This document shows, in pieces, positions 1,481 to 45,244 of a DNA stretch of 46,288 nt. The stretch's first letter is position 1. The number at the start of each line of letters is the position of its first letter. The notes below the pieces were generated by a model. The model saw only the letters and a program-made list of their open reading frames with translations. It did no database searches and had not been told where the DNA came from. This DNA is from Escherichia phage 2H10. The stretch is taken from the sequence record NC_049950.1; one strand, 5' to 3'. Made by a program: the position numbers and the translations under genes.

Positions 1481-5161
<3,681 letters not shown>

Positions 5162-23717: not shown

Positions 23718-24292
23718 TGGCATTCAGAATGAGTGAACAACCACGGACCATAAAAATTTATAATCTGCTGGCCGGAACTAATGAATTTATTGGTGAAGGT
23801 GACGCATATATTCCGCCTCATACAGGTCTGCCAGCAAACAGTACCTATATTGCACCGCCAGATATTCCGGCTGGCTTCGTGGCTGTTTTCAACAGTGATG
23901 AGGCATCGTGGCATCTCGTTGAAGACCATCGGGGTAAAACGGTTTATGATGTAGCGTCAGGGGACGCGTTATTTATTTCTGAACTCGGTCCGTTACCGGA
24001 AAATGTTACCTGGTTATCGCCGGAAGGGGAGTTTCAGAAGTGGAACGGCACAGCCTGGGTGAAAGATGCAGAAGCAGAAAAACTGTTCCGGATCCGGGAG
24101 GCGGAAGAAACAAAAAACAGCCTGATGCAGGTAGCCAGTGAGCATATTGCGCCGCTTCAGGATGCTGCAGATCTGGAAATTGCAACGGAGGAAGAAATCT
24201 CGTTGCTGGAAGCATGGAAAAAGTATCGGGTATTGCTGAACCGTGTTGATACGTCAACTGCACAGGATATTGAATGGCCAGCACTGCCGTAG
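23717..24292 (+). CDS. tfa: tail fibre assembly chaperone Tfa
   Basis: 191-aa product [42 protein letters not shown]... recognised as lambda Tfa; start overlaps stf stop. Confidence 0.95.
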
Positions 24293-32194: not shown

Positions 32195-32557
32195 TTAACG
32201 ACCAGCTGCGCGGAGTTTTCCGTCAGGTTCACCGGCAAGAGTCAGTAATTGTCCCTGGTCTTCCTGCAGAATAGTCAGGCGACCACCGCGATTGACATAC
32301 ATCGGCGTTTCGGTGGTGTCTTCTTCGGAAATTTTCCCGCGGTTAGTTGGGCGAACATATGAGAGTTTGTGTTTGATTTTCACACGGTTCTCATCAAACG
32401 GTTCGATTTCCAGATTGAGTGAGACCTTCCCTTTGGTTTTCGTGTTCATCACACCGGAAGCGACTTCACTTAGAACTGCGCCGATTTTGGTTTCAAATAC
32501 GCCGCCGTCCAGCTCCCCGATAAATGCCTGCACATCAGTACTGCGTTCACTAGCCAT
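32195..32557 (-). CDS. YfdP-like phage protein
   Basis: Track ORF 32195-32788; internal ATG 32557 with AGGAG 7 nt upstream gives a 120-aa product MASERSTDVQAFIGELDGGVFETKIG...; the upstream in-frame extension looks non-coding. Confidence 0.65.
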   Translation of the reverse strand: MASERSTDVQAFIGELDGGVFETKIGAVLSEVASGVMNTKTKGKVSLNLEIEPFDENRVKIKHKLSYVRPTNRGKISEEDTTETPMYVNRGGRLTILQEDQGQLLTLAGEPDGKLRAAGR

Positions 32558-32693
32558 TTTGCTGCTCCTCATCATATCGACCCTGCAAGGTCGGTTAGTT
32601 TCTCCACAAAACAGAGAAGAACACCTGCGGTGGCAGCCGCCCGGATGGATTGGGTTATGAGCCCGTCGTCCGATGATGCTCTTCTCTGTTTTG

Positions 32694-32740
32694 TAAAAAG
32701 AGCGGTACCAGCCGGAAGCAAGTGTACAAACTGGTACCGC
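32694..32740 (-). terminator. intrinsic terminator-like hairpin inside the early-left leader
   Basis: Minus-strand gcggtaccag ... ctggtaccgc 10-bp GC-rich stem followed by ctcttttt; the loop contains a TTGTACA motif. Confidence 0.45.
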
Positions 32741-33158
32741 CAAAGCAGTGGCTGTTGTGGTGGGGTTGTCACTCAGGCGTATGGTCAACCTGACAATCCG
32801 GTGTCCTCAACGGGGAAAGAGTAACCCAGCCATACTTACCGCCGCGCCATTTCGCGGATGACCACAACGCTGAGAGCACTTAGCCAGTTACGGCACCACA
32901 CTTTGTCGCGGCTCCATAAATGCCCTCATCGTTGCACCCTGGTCTCTTCCCAGGCGTCAAACCGGATCGCCACGCTGGTTAGGCGTCTTATCAGCATCAT
33001 CATTGACTTGCACATTCCGGCTACCTGGTTTGTTTGCCCTAGCAAGGAGTGGATTGTCCCCTTTAACGTCCCCAGACCGCTAACGACGCATGTGCCATAC
33101 GCCGTGTTACAACCAAATTTTGTTTGAATCTTGCCTGCCTCATGTTTCTTTTGGATAC

Positions 33159-33186
33159 ATTATGTATCTCATGGGTACATTGTCAA
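33159..33186 (-). promoter_or_regulatory. strong sigma-70 promoter reading leftward (pL-like)
   Basis: Minus-strand TTGACA (33181-33186), 16-nt spacer, CATAAT (33159-33164); overlapped by a perfect palindrome GATACATtATGTATC (33154-33168) that could be an operator. Confidence 0.55.
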
Positions 33187-33189
33187 GTA

Positions 33190-33213
33190 TAAAAAAACCT
33201 GCCGAAGCAGGTT
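33190..33213 (-). terminator. rho-independent terminator immediately after the cI stop
   Basis: Minus-strand acctgc-ttcg-gcaggt hairpin followed by ttttttt, directly seen 13 nt after the cI stop codon. Confidence 0.65.
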
Positions 33214-33225
33214 CATAAATATTGA

Positions 33226-33900
33226 TTAGGCCTTTATTGTGTATCTTCTTGGTTTTCCCGAGAAAATCACTGTACCAATTATAGAGCAATTACCGTTAAT
33301 CTTAATGTAAGGCTCAGGCCAGTTTGGGTTTAATGCTTTGAGATAACGCTGTGTTCCATCTTCTATCAATCGCTTGAAGGTGGTTTCGCCTGTATCGTGC
33401 ATCAATGCAATAACGTCGTCACCGTGGCAGGCAGGGACTTCGGGATCAACAAAAATCATGTCTCCAGGGCGGTACTCATCAATCATTGAATCACCAATCA
33501 CCCGCAAGATATAAGTCATTTCGCCACAGGGTACAGGGCAGGGATACGTTTCTGCTGTGCTCAAATCAACCTCAGAATAGCCAACTTCTTTCCATGCTCC
33601 GGCCTGTACCCATGATATGACAGGGACTAACGTTATTTGTTTGTTAGTGATTGAAACATCAGGTTTTTTTGTGATGTTCGTTGTCTGGTGTTCTTGATCA
33701 AGCCATCCGACAGGCAGGTCGAAACATTTTTCGATGTGCCGTGCCATGCTGTCACCGATATTTTTAGTAGCGCCATCCCCCATAAACCTGCTGGTTTGGG
33801 TTGGCTCGCGATCAATCATGGTGGCAAAGGATGAATTTCCGCCAACACCATCTCTCAGTTTTCTGGCGTTAGACCGCCGGATGTCATGGATTGTTTTCAT
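33226..33900 (-). CDS. cI: CI-type prophage repressor with C-terminal S24 (LexA-like) autopeptidase domain
   Basis: 224-aa product; C-terminus ...LVPVISWVQAGAWKEV...RVIGDSMIDEYRPGDMIFVD...TTFKRL...INGNCSIIGTVIF shows the Ala-Gly cleavage site, GDSM catalytic Ser and Lys of S24 peptidases; divergent from cro. Confidence 0.88.
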   Translation of the reverse strand: MKTIHDIRRSNARKLRDGVGGNSSFATMIDREPTQTSRFMGDGATKNIGDSMARHIEKCFDLPVGWLDQEHQTTNITKKPDVSITNKQITLVPVISWVQAGAWKEVGYSEVDLSTAETYPCPVPCGEMTYILRVIGDSMIDEYRPGDMIFVDPEVPACHGDDVIALMHDTGETTFKRLIEDGTQRYLKALNPNWPEPYIKINGNCSIIGTVIFSGKPRRYTIKA

Positions 33901-33990: not shown

Positions 33991-34191
33991 ATGAAAGCGT
34001 ATTGGGACTCTTTAACCAAAGAACAGCAGGGCGAGTTGGCCGGAAAAGTTGGCTCAACACCTGGCTACTTACGGCTGGTTTTCAATGGTTATAAAAAAGC
34101 CAGTTTTGTGCTGGCGAAAAAACTTGAGCAATGCACGTCAGGTGCAATTACGAAATCTGACTTAAGACCGGATATCTATCCGAAAGATTAA
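33991..34191 (+). CDS. cro: Cro-like repressor
   Basis: 66-aa product MKAYWDSLTKEQQGELAGKVGSTPGYLRLVFNGYKKASFVLAKKLEQCTSGAITKSDLRPDIY (HTH); GGAGG upstream; divergent from cI. Confidence 0.8.
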   Translation: MKAYWDSLTKEQQGELAGKVGSTPGYLRLVFNGYKKASFVLAKKLEQCTSGAITKSDLRPDIYPKD

Positions 34192-34222: not shown

Positions 34223-34786
34223 ATGAGGCTAACCGTGGGTAAGTATCACTGGAAAGTAGAAAAACAGCCTGAGTGGTACGTGAAAGCTGTCAGAAAAACT
34301 ATCGCAGCGTTGCCGGGTGGTTACGCTGAAGCAGCTGACTGGCTGGATGTAACAGAGAACGCATTATTTAACCGCCTTCGTGCCGATGGCGATCAGATTT
34401 TCCCGCTGGGATGGGCAATGGTTTTACAGCGCGCGGCTGACACTCACTACATTGCGGATGCTGTCGCACAGTCTGCTGGTGGGGTGTTCGTATCGCTTCC
34501 TGAAATTGAGGAAGTAGAGAACGCCGATATAAACCAGCGCCTGCTGGAAGTCATCGAACAGATCGGGAATTACTCAAAGCAGATTCGTTCGGCAATCGAA
34601 GATGGGGTCGTGGAGCCACACGAGCAGACAGCAATTAATGATGAGTTGTATCTGTCAATTTCGAAGCTCCAAGAGCATGCAGCACTGGTCTACAAAATCT
34701 TTTGCGCTCCAGAAAAGAGTGACGCCCGCGAGTGTGCAGCTCCGGGCGTCGTGGCGTTTTGTGTCTGTGGAGAAACTAACGCATGA
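34223..34786 (+). CDS. putative CII-like regulatory protein (CP76-type)
   Basis: 187-aa ORF immediately after cro in the position of cII; weak family-level resemblance only. Confidence 0.45.
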   Translation: MRLTVGKYHWKVEKQPEWYVKAVRKTIAALPGGYAEAADWLDVTENALFNRLRADGDQIFPLGWAMVLQRAADTHYIADAVAQSAGGVFVSLPEIEEVENADINQRLLEVIEQIGNYSKQIRSAIEDGVVEPHEQTAINDELYLSISKLQEHAALVYKIFCAPEKSDARECAAPGVVAFCVCGETNA

Positions 34787-35619
34787 ACAGTTTAACGGCA
34801 AATAACCGTTTGTCGCAACAGCTGGTGGTCAGTGTCGCTGAACACCTGTTGTTACGGCATGAATGCAGATTACCAAATCACCTGGCTGTAAGTAACCACA
34901 GAGAACTTTACCTGACTGTGGGGGGCGAGTTGTGCGGGAACTTAACCGCTGGTTTCGTGACGGAAGAGGGCTTTATGTCCATGTTATTCGTTGGGAACCA
35001 GAAACACAGCGCGTTATCTATCTTCGCAAAGACTACCCGCATGAGTGCTTTAGTCCTTTGTGGAAATTCAGGCGTGATTTTGTTGAGTGTGAAGGACCAC
35101 CAGCACATTGATTCTGCCATTCCGGGACGTTACACTGTTCAGGCACCTTATAAAGCGGGTGACGGGATTGGCGTCCTGGAAATGTTATCGGCGATATATG
35201 ACGCGCCAGCGTCTTTTTTATCGTCTGTGTCTGTGCACACCCAAATTATGGTGGGCTGGACGGGGGCACCGAAAGGTGCGCCGGTTTCCGATAACGCCGG
35301 TTACGCCAACCCCGTTCAGTTCACCACCAGCGAAATTGGCGTTTCCGGTGGTGAAGGTAATTCACTGTTATCGGAGGCTGCCATCATGGCTACTGTCCCA
35401 GCCCTCACTCGTCTGAATGATGAAGACTTACATAAACTCAGTTATGTAACAACTGCACTACGTGCTCTGCGCAAGGTAACTCTTTCGGATCCGCAGGCGC
35501 ATCAGGTTTTGGTAGAAACCCTTCTTAACTTGCAGGCTGAACGTATTCGTCTGGCGGATAAGGCTAATTTTCATATTCACCGTCTCCTGAATATCAGCGG
35601 AGGGCATCGTCATGCTTAA
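34783..35619 (+). CDS. hypothetical protein
   Basis: 278-aa ORF whose ATG overlaps the upstream stop (ATGA), suggesting translational coupling; no recognisable motif. Confidence 0.5.
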   Translation: MNSLTANNRLSQQLVVSVAEHLLLRHECRLPNHLAVSNHRELYLTVGGELCGNLTAGFVTEEGFMSMLFVGNQKHSALSIFAKTTRMSALVLCGNSGVILLSVKDHQHIDSAIPGRYTVQAPYKAGDGIGVLEMLSAIYDAPASFLSSVSVHTQIMVGWTGAPKGAPVSDNAGYANPVQFTTSEIGVSGGEGNSLLSEAAIMATVPALTRLNDEDLHKLSYVTTALRALRKVTLSDPQAHQVLVETLLNLQAERIRLADKANFHIHRLLNISGGHRHA

Positions 35620-41074: not shown

Positions 41075-41374
41075 AAAAATTCCTTAATACTGATAACTGG
41101 GCGCACTATACACACGTTCCTGAAGAAAGCTATAGTTTTTTGATGGGGTTGAAGATGGCTGGATGTCTAAAATAAACATTGCTTCATATGTTCAACTATG
41201 CGTTAATGATTGCGTCGGTTTGAAGAACAGACGATATACGAAGTAGTTTACTAAAGCAGTTCTCATTTCAGGTGTTATTCACTTATTCCTTCTTTGAGTC
41301 TCTCCAATTAAGTACGAAGTCGTTTCTGTTATACAAGCCATTTATGCCGAAAGGCTCAAGTTAAGGAATGTAGA

Positions 41375-41590
41375 ATGTCAAATAAAATGACTGGTTTAGT
41401 AAAATGGTTTAACGCTGATAAAGGTTTTGGCTTTATTTCTCCTGTTGATGGTAGTAAAGATGTGTTTGTGCATTTTTCTGCGATTCAGAATGATAATTTT
41501 CGAACCTTATTTGAAGGTCAAAAGGTTACCTTCTCTGTAGAGAGTGGTGCTAAAGGTCCTGCAGCAGCAAATGTCATAATTACTGATTAA
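41375..41590 (+). CDS. cspB: cold-shock protein CspB-like
   Basis: 71-aa product [67 protein letters not shown] with RNP1/RNP2 motifs. Confidence 0.88.
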
Positions 41591-41871
41591 AATTCATAGT
41601 TTGTCTGTATACGATAACGAAGAAGGCTGATGCCTGAGTGGAGATACAGACAGAGTGGTGAATATTGGATCTCTTTAATAAATAGTAAGGAGGTCCAATA
41701 CATGAAACAATGGCCAGCATATTTGGCAATAACTTAATCAGGAAAAGTATGCTAACCATTGTGGTGAAGTGCAGGTTTGCTGCATGAATAGTTTTACAGC
41801 AGAAGCTAACTGCTGGCATAGCAAAACAAAGTGCGTAAGTGGATGACTCCCACAAAAAGCACCACAATATT

Positions 41872-44463: not shown

Positions 44464-44826
44464 ATTAATATTAAATCGGATTATTTTTAGCGCTGAATGT
44501 GAAATTTAAATAAAAAGGACTCTTCCATGAGTCAAAATTCTTGAAATCTTAAGGGTAAGATAAAAGGTCATTAGACAGAATGACACGTTTTATTAATAAA
44601 TAAAGCTATTGTTTCATTCGTGTGTTTTTCTTTACAAAAGTAATCCTTGCTATGGTTGGTTAATCATGCGTTAATGGTGTTCTGGTTTGTTACAAAATTA
44701 TCTGAAGCAGTCATTGTTATAATTTTATTATTTGTACCTCTTGAGATTTCCTTGTTGGTTTTTCTCTCTGATATTTTTTTTCGGACCATTCTGCCCAAGG
44801 GCTAACTTCTTCAAAAGGTAATAATG

Positions 44827-45039
44827 ATGTCTAACAAAATGACTGGTTTAGTGAAATGGTTTAACCCTGAAAAAGGTTTTGGTTTCATCACGCCGAAAGA
44901 TGGTAGCAAAGATGTGTTTGTCCATTTCTCAGCTATTCAGAGCAACGATTTCAAAACGTTAACTGAGAATCAGGAAGTCGAATTTGGTATTGAGAACGGA
45001 CCTAAAGGCCCCGCGGCTGTTCATGTAGTGGCACTTTGA
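44827..45039 (+). CDS. cspI: cold-shock protein CspI-like
   Basis: 70-aa product [70 protein letters not shown]. Confidence 0.88.
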
Positions 45040-45244
45040 GGTAGAAAATATTACAAACCATATTCACTTTAGATGCCCGTGTTGCCATGGTTCTCAGTAT
45101 AGAACATCATCTTTTGATGTTTCTGACAGGAATCCTTTCGGGGCAAAATGTATCTTTTGTAAATCAATGATGATTACATTTGATAATATTTCACAATACT
45201 TAAATGTTAGCCGTCTGTCGTTAGATTTAAGAAAGTGAAAATGA

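Follow-up and report, generated by a model that had tools for sequence, protein, structure and literature searches.

The early-left region of Escherichia phage 2H10 (NC_049950.1) raises the question of how lambdoid phages that carry yfdP, yfdQ and yfdR (yfdPQR) and lack N carry transcription of this operon past terminators. The sequence is a complete lambdoid prophage of the cdtI / Ayreon / mEp460 type and was analyzed over its full length of 46,288 nt, referred to below as the window. The element of concern is the untranslated leader, on the minus strand, between a pL-like promoter and yfdP, the first early-left gene. A sequence-only reading made earlier had treated this leader as one structured element. 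It is instead a mosaic of RNA modules, each conserved and mobile independently of the others, in a chain that begins with a structured core. Our preferred reading, to which we give a probability of about 0.5, is that pL drives a multi-part non-coding RNA precursor whose transcripts mostly end at a leaky internal terminator (T), with the core set free as a discrete RNA, probably one acting in trans.

A megablast search of 5,426 complete E. coli genomes with a 661-nt leader query split the query into pieces that occur independently. One piece is also found on ~95 kb plasmids and lies beside tRNA-Arg in another prophage. Five modules were delimited by tracing these pieces, and covarying helices are present in every one. 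The transcript strand of the leader folds better than 100 of 100 shuffles (z = -3.5), so the folding check proposed with the sequence-only reading supports the heavily structured leader that it described. The opposite strand also scores well (z = -3.0), and folding energy alone therefore leaves the strand unsettled.

The pL-like sigma-70 promoter, TTGACA-16-CATAAT at 33159..33186 (minus strand), has 11 of 12 consensus matches and points leftward right after the cI terminator, as had been described. It also matches a promoter annotation in the Ayreon record. The intrinsic terminator of cI (33195..33214, minus strand) lies directly upstream of pL and has an 8-bp stem, a 4-nt loop and a T run; a terminator is annotated at the same place in Ayreon. 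Transcription is predicted to start at ~33152, which leaves ~595 nt to the yfdP ATG at 32557 and ~455 nt to the end of T. The leader had been described as ~450 nt and non-coding. The second part stands; the length is that of the span to the internal terminator and falls short of the distance to yfdP. The stretch 32540-33200 has 97.9% identity with phage cdtI.

No protein-coding frame is open throughout 38 diverse homologues on either strand (maximum 6 of 38), and spacings between conserved anchors fall in all residues modulo 3. A 26-amino acid open reading frame (ORF) with an ATG at 33143 has lost its start codon in Ayreon, whose leader is 97.7% identical. These results uphold the claim that the leader has no credible coding frame. 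The absence of an N-like gene was likewise confirmed. A Pfam scan of 10 early-left and early-right ORFs gave no N-family match, and yfdP matched in PHROGs solely families without known function, none of them N-like. The sole antiterminator found in the window is the Q-type late protein (PF03589, 39652-40446). PHROGs and Pfam searches of the downstream first genes in other phages with the cI-pL arrangement identified proteins of unknown function and one ParB-like protein, and no antiterminator. No search was aimed at nut sites; GCUCUUUUUACAA at the terminator tail is boxA-like but reads GCCCUUUUUACAA in relatives, and ahead of the ribosome-binding site lies a small hairpin whose stem covaries and whose loop is UUGCA.

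We regard as negligible the chance that the region encodes one or more small proteins, such as the 39-amino acid ORF of Ayreon or a ymfH-like ORF over the long hairpin ahead of yfdP (module C). Short coding sequences (CDSs) are annotated here in GenBank and RefSeq records, but their frames are not conserved, indels are not multiples of three, covariation is found in paired columns, and in two genomes RefSeq itself lists the ORF over module C as frameshifted. CDSs named ymfH or 'frameshifted hypothetical protein' overlie T and module C in e14 (L127 2363-2674) and at two other loci (L185 2361-2671; L186 2362-2681). These CDSs and Ayreon gp37 are probably RNA rather than protein genes. The 39-amino acid CDS of Ayreon sits within the core and is probably RNA as well.

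Structure and conservation of the core RNA

The core (32931..33105, minus strand) consists of helices P1 to P5 and a pseudoknot and scores 142 bits (E = 2e-38) with covariance model R1. Together with helix P6 it occupies 33105-32861 on the minus strand, a 245-nt RNA with at least six helices and the pseudoknot. Model R1 finds it as a single copy in the window, with none in the pR operon. It is preceded by a 5' leader (33106..33152, minus strand), the last 12 nt of which (UUUGGUUGUAAC, 33117-33106) are common to phage P1. Hairpin P1 (33104-33084) has the pattern ACGGCRUAU-GGCAC-AUGYGYCG, and helix P2 closes a variable domain or insert. A near-invariant single-stranded block of ~20 nt (GGUAGCCGGAAUGUGCAAGUC, 33025-33005) reads GGGUAGCCGGAAUGUGCAAGCC across homologues and is followed by the variable hairpin P3. 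Hairpin P4 (32986-32972) has a 4-bp stem and the loop CUAACCA, which reads YUCACCA in the family. The pseudoknot pairs this loop with GGUUUGA (32963-32957); in the family, UCACC in the loop pairs with a downstream GGUGUGA. Hairpin P5 (32956-32935) carries the loop GAAGAGA. P6 (32861..32934; CAAC / GAGGGCAUU ... AAGUGCUCUC / GUUG) contains a large variable insert and ends in a conserved GUU|GUGG. All of these elements are on the minus strand.

Homologues were first retrieved with an exact core 16-mer (GGTAGCCGGAATGTGC), which identified at least 120 IMG/VR viral contigs. Unique sequences from this set form 42 clusters at 93% identity, and their alignments contain conserved blocks broken by hairpins that vary in sequence and length. 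In a MAFFT alignment, P1, P2, P4, P5 and the pseudoknot have 93.9% of cells paired, compared to 24-47% with slid partners, and 14 of 32 pairs have changed on both sides. The covariation score is 0.238 versus 0.115 in shuffles, and none of 500 shuffles reaches it; because the sequences counted are related, significance is overstated by the shuffle control, and the slid-partner control is more telling. For P6, 85% of cells are paired versus 23-49% when slid, with seven pairs changed on both sides. Within hairpin P1, one pair is evenly divided between G-C (19 sequences) and A-U (19 sequences). A pseudoknot pair has switched from C-G to A-U at least twice, once in the clade of the window and once between two Kosakonia loci (L135 versus L161). 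This covariation indicates that the core is a real, constrained RNA.

When run on the full alignment, RNAalifold replaced P1 with a long-range GCACAU/AUGUGC pairing. All columns of that pairing are invariant, whereas the local P1 hairpin has a clean G-C to A-U switch, so the hairpin was kept. A candidate GCAC/GUGC tertiary contact was also considered; rare variants in the block show no compensating change.

Several loci carry tRNA-like or repeated pieces around P6. T-arm-like hairpins (5-bp stem, loop TTCRAWT) occur in four clusters, within the P6 inserts of L009, L097 and L101 and just after P6 in L074. The L101 insert resembles an entire degenerate tRNA embedded in the helix. At five loci (L190, L194, L203, L206 and L234), a P6-type 3' strand (AGUGCGCUUCCAGGUGUGA) lies immediately upstream of the core. 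This arrangement suggests tandem chains of RNA modules.

Because the first set had been selected by the 16-mer, retrieval was repeated with two other anchors as an ascertainment control. A P1/J1-2 anchor, searched in one genome per species, gave 23 matches confirmed by the covariance model, of which 22 keep the block exactly. Enterobacterales account for 22 of the 23 and include Kosakonia, Citrobacter, Klebsiella, Enterobacter, Kluyvera, Phytobacter, Pseudescherichia, Superficieibacter and Erwinia dacicola. The remaining match, of 160 bits to the core, is on a 1.7-kb contig (L181 1158-1317) from a Bacillota metagenome-assembled genome and most likely reflects mis-binning of enterobacterial phage DNA, not a wider host range. 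With an anchor in P4 and the pseudoknot, 77 of 91 further viral contigs keep the block exactly.

The core is present in 1832 of 5426 complete E. coli genomes by blastn, about a third, with 551 of the places on plasmids. Carriers include Stx2-converting and cdt-converting phages, O157 typing phages, and P1 and its plasmid relatives. Among the E. coli records listed, RefSeq (PGAP) has no annotated feature under the core match. The Rfam scan proposed earlier was run with Rfam 15 on the whole window, and no family matched within 32560-33160 at gathering scores. Permissive filters, applied to the leader region, returned chance-level matches alone, with E > 0.2 and far below gathering. ARAGORN identified 0 tRNA or tmRNA genes in the window. 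Core sequence strings had no full-text match in the searchable literature, and searches there on yfdP, small RNAs, antitermination, the P1 ban operon and processive antitermination in prophages returned nothing on the core RNA. The prophage Pas small RNAs (bioRxiv 10.64898/2026.05.13.724894) were considered and set aside; they are an 84-nt class from late regions and are unrelated to the core. From these comparisons, the core is a candidate new RNA family.

Settings of the core in phages and plasmids

The core occurs in three unrelated settings: lambdoid phages with the cI-pL arrangement, P1-like phages and plasmids, and epsilon15-like phages. No protein gene is common to the three, and the partner of the core is therefore probably a host component. 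The cI-pL setting was identified from a same-strand gene the size of cI (218-320 amino acids) that ends 110-170 nt upstream, which is found in ~14 of 42 clusters. In the Stx2a phage WGPS2, the order is that of the window (cI, terminator, pL, core), followed by yfdPQR, xis and int.

In P1, P7, D6 and P1-like plasmids, the core starts ~15 nt after a tRNA-Ile(CAU) and is upstream of ban. The P1 copy sits within the C1-controlled ban operon. A hairpin scan found no terminator after the P1 core copies. The P1 copy is followed, before ban, by UUUUCUGGUGAUGAC (L005 ~3715-3730), which resembles the 5' seed of the small RNA DicF (UUUCUGGUGACG); the likeness covers 10 nt and could be chance.

In epsilon15-like phages (phiV10, TL-2011b) and related prophages, the core is part of a unit between the terminase and portal genes, on the opposite strand. 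This unit consists of a TTGACA promoter, the core with P6, a tRNA-Arg(UCU) and two strong terminators, and a variable cargo gene comes after it. The tRNA begins exactly at the GUGG of the conserved GUU|GUGG. Overall, a same-strand tRNA abuts the core RNA at 43 of 125 loci. In 37 of 42 clusters, our hairpin scan placed a terminator-like hairpin no more than ~900 nt beyond the conserved motif, mostly 100-250 nt past the 3' end of the RNA. Judged from these settings, the core behaves as a self-contained RNA gene.

The neighboring modules also occur without the core. In one E. coli prophage (L185 1640-1690), a remnant of hairpin P1 is all of the core that follows a pL-like promoter, and an ORF-bearing insert replaces P2 to P5. 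This natural core-deletion variant keeps T, module C and yfdPQR. The core is absent upstream of T and module C in three E. coli prophages and in the K-12 prophage Qin.

The 3' half of the leader and the DicF locus

Module B (32754..32868, minus strand) is a predicted four-way junction closed by GUUGUGGU / ACCACAAC (GUUGUGGY/RCCACAAC). In its alignment, 95.7% of cells are paired versus 35-60% when slid and six pairs have changed on both sides, although the sequences are 85% identical, which limits the weight of this result. Module B fills the slot taken by tRNA-Arg(UCU) in epsilon15-like phages. Its likeness to a tRNA is a predicted cloverleaf-like shape only, and ARAGORN calls no tRNA there. 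In Qin (L188 2957-3090), a homologue stands directly upstream of DicF and behind a P6-like hairpin. Others occur within the E. coli strain 111 dicB operon and immediately behind Pban in P1 (L005 1240-1333), where the sequence overlaps the 'dicF-like region' of the P1 record. Module B may guide processing of the DicF precursor.

Terminator T (32695..32740, minus strand) holds the position that DicF has in the Qin locus. Its arms (GCGGUACCAG ... CUGGUACCGC; 32702-32711 / 32731-32740) form a perfectly complementary 10-bp stem with a 19-nt loop, followed by UCUUUUU at 32701-32695, and the intrinsic-terminator-like hairpin noticed inside the leader was thus recovered. The energy is -20.3 kcal/mol in our own hairpin scan. 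T escaped a consensus terminator scan solely because that scan allows loops of no more than 8 nt. The stem covaries among relatives, and a related hairpin (UUGGCGGUGAUGG...CUAUCACCGCCCUUUUUACAG) follows tRNA-Arg in TL-2011b.

The order of a P6-like hairpin, module B and DicF in K-12 is repeated in the window with T in place of DicF. T and DicF both carry UUUGGCGGUAYCAGUUU and a CCGCYCUUUUUA tail. These shared features mark P6, module B and T as homologous to the DicF-bearing untranslated region of the Qin dicBF operon. T itself was considered as a DicF and rejected. The likeness is local and positional; DicF model RF00039, which recovers K-12 DicF at 76.7 bits as a control, finds nothing anywhere in the window at gathering score and nothing within 32300-33400 at E <= 10. 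The DicF 5' seed is absent from T, where the window reads CAACAGCCACUGC at that position, and none of the RefSeq records listed carries a dicF label. The covariance model does not find the core in K-12 Qin.

DicF lies within a long untranslated region and its 5' end is made by RNase E (PMC5069750). Its 3' end comes from Rho-independent termination or from an RNase III cut of full-length dicBF mRNA (PMC5069750). Because that full-length mRNA is made, the Qin DicF terminator is leaky without a dedicated antiterminator, and Qin has no core. As far as was found, the structured modules upstream of DicF were previously undescribed. The DicF locus appears to exemplify a wider system in which phages shuffle modular RNA cassettes (P6, module B, T and tRNAs among them) between early operons.

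Module C (32606..32694, minus strand) is an inverted repeat that forms a long near-perfect hairpin with a branched tip. Its arms (32606-32630 / 32670-32694) are 25 nt long and 84% complementary. The perfect 15-bp stem of the sequence-only reading is present and pairs 32606-32620 with 32680-32694; its outer coordinate is 32606 and not 32585, and it encloses 59 nt and not ~80 nt. The 25-pair stem is 97% paired, with four pairs changed on both sides. In a 10-sequence alignment, helices of module C and the ribosome-binding region are 89.6% paired versus ~45% when slid, and 17 pairs have changed on both sides. Module C homologues are ~80% identical and precede differing first genes, including yfdP, xisE of e14 and others. 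The ribosome-binding region (32558..32605, minus strand) contains a conserved GGAGAAACUAAC, the small hairpin CGACCUUGCAGGGUCG (32593-32578; three pairs changed on both sides) and the Shine-Dalgarno sequence GAGGAG (32570-32565), and yfdP follows. In comparable phage leaders, a long duplex just ahead of the Shine-Dalgarno sequence is an RNase III target. The module C stem can extend into the U run of T via a conserved GGAGA, and since it pairs with this run the hairpin can form solely in read-through transcripts. Module C is a candidate RNase III substrate in those transcripts.

Function of the core and comparison with known systems

In the preferred reading, lifting of cI repression would let pL transcribe the 245-nt core with P6, the tRNA-shaped module B and T, in that order. 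The majority of transcripts would stop at T to give a primary RNA of ~455 nt. A fraction would read through T, allowing hairpin C to form as a likely RNase III site and yfdP, yfdQ, yfdR and genes beyond to be expressed. The core with P6 would be released as a discrete, stable RNA with a 3' end cut at GUU|GUGG and a 5' end near the transcription start or, in P1, behind the upstream tRNA. RNase P could make the 3' cut, as GUU|GUGG is the U(-1)/G(+1) junction of the tRNA-Arg variants, and may also cut ahead of module B. Once released, the core would probably engage a conserved host component in trans, soon after induction or infection.

Of the options left by the sequence-only reading, the best fit is an RNA with its end at the internal terminator, given T at the DicF position and the promoter-to-terminator unit of epsilon15-like phages. 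Four observations favor treating the core as a gene product, probably one acting in trans: stand-alone units with tandem terminators, the association with RNA genes, the lack of a shared protein neighbor and the sharp 3' boundary. Given its invariant unpaired block and pseudoknot, a conserved host macromolecule is the likely target. For the 3' half of the leader, leakiness of the Qin terminator and cutting by RNase E and RNase III supplied the model adopted here.

Several points weigh against this reading. The analysis establishes the modules with their structures, homologies and genomic settings; termination efficiency, processing by RNase P and RNase III, stability and action in trans are features that we infer from sequence comparison. 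The same holds for the putative discrete 245-nt species and for a target in trans. Cleavage by RNase P is proposed from the coincidence with tRNA-Arg +1 and the predicted shape of module B, and ARAGORN finds no tRNA in the window, module B included. The P1 copy has P1 to P5 and no P6, so the 3' end defined by P6 is not universal. Every sampled core-bearing phage of the cI-pL type is without an N-like gene, and in Stx2a_WGPS2, the one relative checked that far, xis and int are downstream of T. In N-less phages with these genes beyond T, a cis-acting antiterminator would be expected.

The core could be such an antiterminator, functionally like put of HK022 and unrelated to it, in which the nascent RNA binds its own polymerase, takes it past T and later terminators, and so replaces N. 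The core lies between pL and a -20 kcal/mol terminator in N-less lambdoid phages, all of yfdPQR, xis and int are beyond T in Stx2a_WGPS2, and the P1 copy lies within a repressor-controlled operon upstream of ban. Long near-invariant unpaired stretches would suit binding to a conserved protein surface. Casjens and colleagues proposed a put-like mechanism for a related N-less phage with yfdPQR, as a suggestion and with no test (PMC12315714). Against this, the core is unlike put in sequence, size and copy number. The epsilon15-like unit points toward the terminase genes and closes with two strong terminators in tandem, an arrangement that a termination-resistant polymerase would hardly fit. A released RNA is also suggested by the sharp 3' boundary where the tRNA begins. 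Qin has T and module C without the core and full-length dicBF mRNA is still made (PMC5069750), and core-less E. coli prophages keep T, module C and yfdPQR. On balance, antitermination by the core is unlikely, while the released, trans-acting RNA remains our preferred reading.

Two other explanations assign less to the core or a different task to T. If the leader were a passive structured spacer, it would block Rho on ~600 nt of untranslated RNA and give RNases entry sites, and its modules would be functionless. The entire leader is strongly folded, long and untranslated, and its hairpins recombine freely, as a spacer would allow. Mere structure does not need ~20 near-invariant unpaired bases and a pseudoknot conserved across Enterobacterales, however, and stand-alone units that precede no long operon are left unexplained, which makes a spacer quite improbable. 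A riboswitch or attenuator, in which a metabolite or tRNA bound to the core controls termination at T, is more doubtful still. The core has the size and complexity of large aptamers, a terminator downstream and links to tRNAs, but T is >110 nt beyond P6, behind an interchangeable module B or a genuine tRNA. An alternative pairing between core and T was not seen, P1 copies have no following terminator, and no Rfam riboswitch matched. The same distance and swappable module argue against the attenuation of the early-left operon that had been suggested earlier.

We tentatively propose, as a possibility that goes beyond the preferred reading, that the 245-nt core represents a new class of large pseudoknotted phage RNA. 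Such an RNA would have the complexity of a ribozyme or ribonucleoprotein, and its carriers would be temperate phages of Enterobacterales of the lambdoid, P1-like and epsilon15-like types. Its target would be a conserved host machine, and tRNA-processing enzymes would set its mature ends. Candidate roles are reprogramming of RNA polymerase independently of put, engagement of tRNA-processing or translation factors, and service as a decoy for tRNA-targeting defence.

About one in three of the complete E. coli genomes thus contains, without annotation, a complex RNA with a ~20-nt near-invariant block. As the first product of pL upon derepression in lambdoid phages, it could matter for induction, excision or host takeover in phages that carry toxins. 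If the core carries transcription past terminators, it would be a second, unrelated kind of RNA antiterminator; if T is merely leaky, it would be a new trans-acting phage RNA.

Genes flanking the leader include cI (33226-33900, minus strand), cro (33992-34191, plus strand) and a CII-family gene (34223-34786). The early-left genes in the window are yfdP, yfdQ (DUF2303) and yfdR. In the pR operon, just after the CII-family gene, Rfam models match an isrK-like RNA (35143-35219, plus strand) and a C4 antisense RNA (35244-35331, plus strand). Both are overlapped by an ORF (34783-35619) that may be spurious; in Ayreon, an overlapping 278-amino acid ORF is named 'immunity region'. Together they resemble an immI (c4) module of the P1/P7 type, here within a lambdoid prophage. 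Two cspA thermoregulator family matches at 41214-41653 and 44669-45085 (plus strand; 156 and 112 bits) indicate that the late region carries two cold-shock-protein genes with long 5' leaders. A full-length Rfam IS009 match (24060-24258, plus strand, 221 bits) is found at the end of the tail-fibre region.

Known systems resemble individual parts of the leader. T4 produces stable RNAs, 'species 1' and 'species 2' (rnaC and rnaD), that are co-transcribed with its tRNA cluster. Like the core, these are structured phage RNAs of 100-250 nt beside tRNA genes and in the same precursor. The likeness is one of description; theirs is the tRNA cluster of a virulent phage, whereas the core is found in temperate enterobacterial phages and usually has no adjoining tRNA. 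Module C is comparable to the RNase III hairpin of the lambda N leader, a long near-perfect duplex in the pL transcript before the ribosome-binding site of the first gene. Here too the comparison is by description and not by sequence, and the window has no N gene. The Qin dicBF operon is like the window in that both untranslated regions belong to an early-left-type operon opposite a cI/cro-like switch, but the place of the core is taken in Qin by ydfA, ydfB and ydfC.

The analogy with HK022 put, raised by the sequence-only reading, was examined against both putL and putR and did not hold up at the level of sequence or structure. A MAFFT alignment of the leader with the two sites gave scattered identities only, the put motif (CGAACGGC ... 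GUCGGG ... CGGCG-GGUYMAGGAUGA ... CAAUG) had 0 window matches at <=3 mismatches, and model R1 found nothing at E <= 10 in the HK022 immunity region. Antitermination by put works in cis, with terminators suppressed via the beta-prime zinc-binding domain of the transcribing polymerase. The put RNA is ~70 nt with two stem-loops and has one copy in each early operon (PMC9378689). As with put, the core is a structured RNA soon after pL in an N-less lambdoid phage with terminators downstream. In contrast, it is 245 nt long with at least six helices and a pseudoknot, is single-copy, is not alignable with put, and also occurs as stand-alone units outside early operons. The core thus occupies the genomic slot of put and of N/nutL and is a member of neither family.

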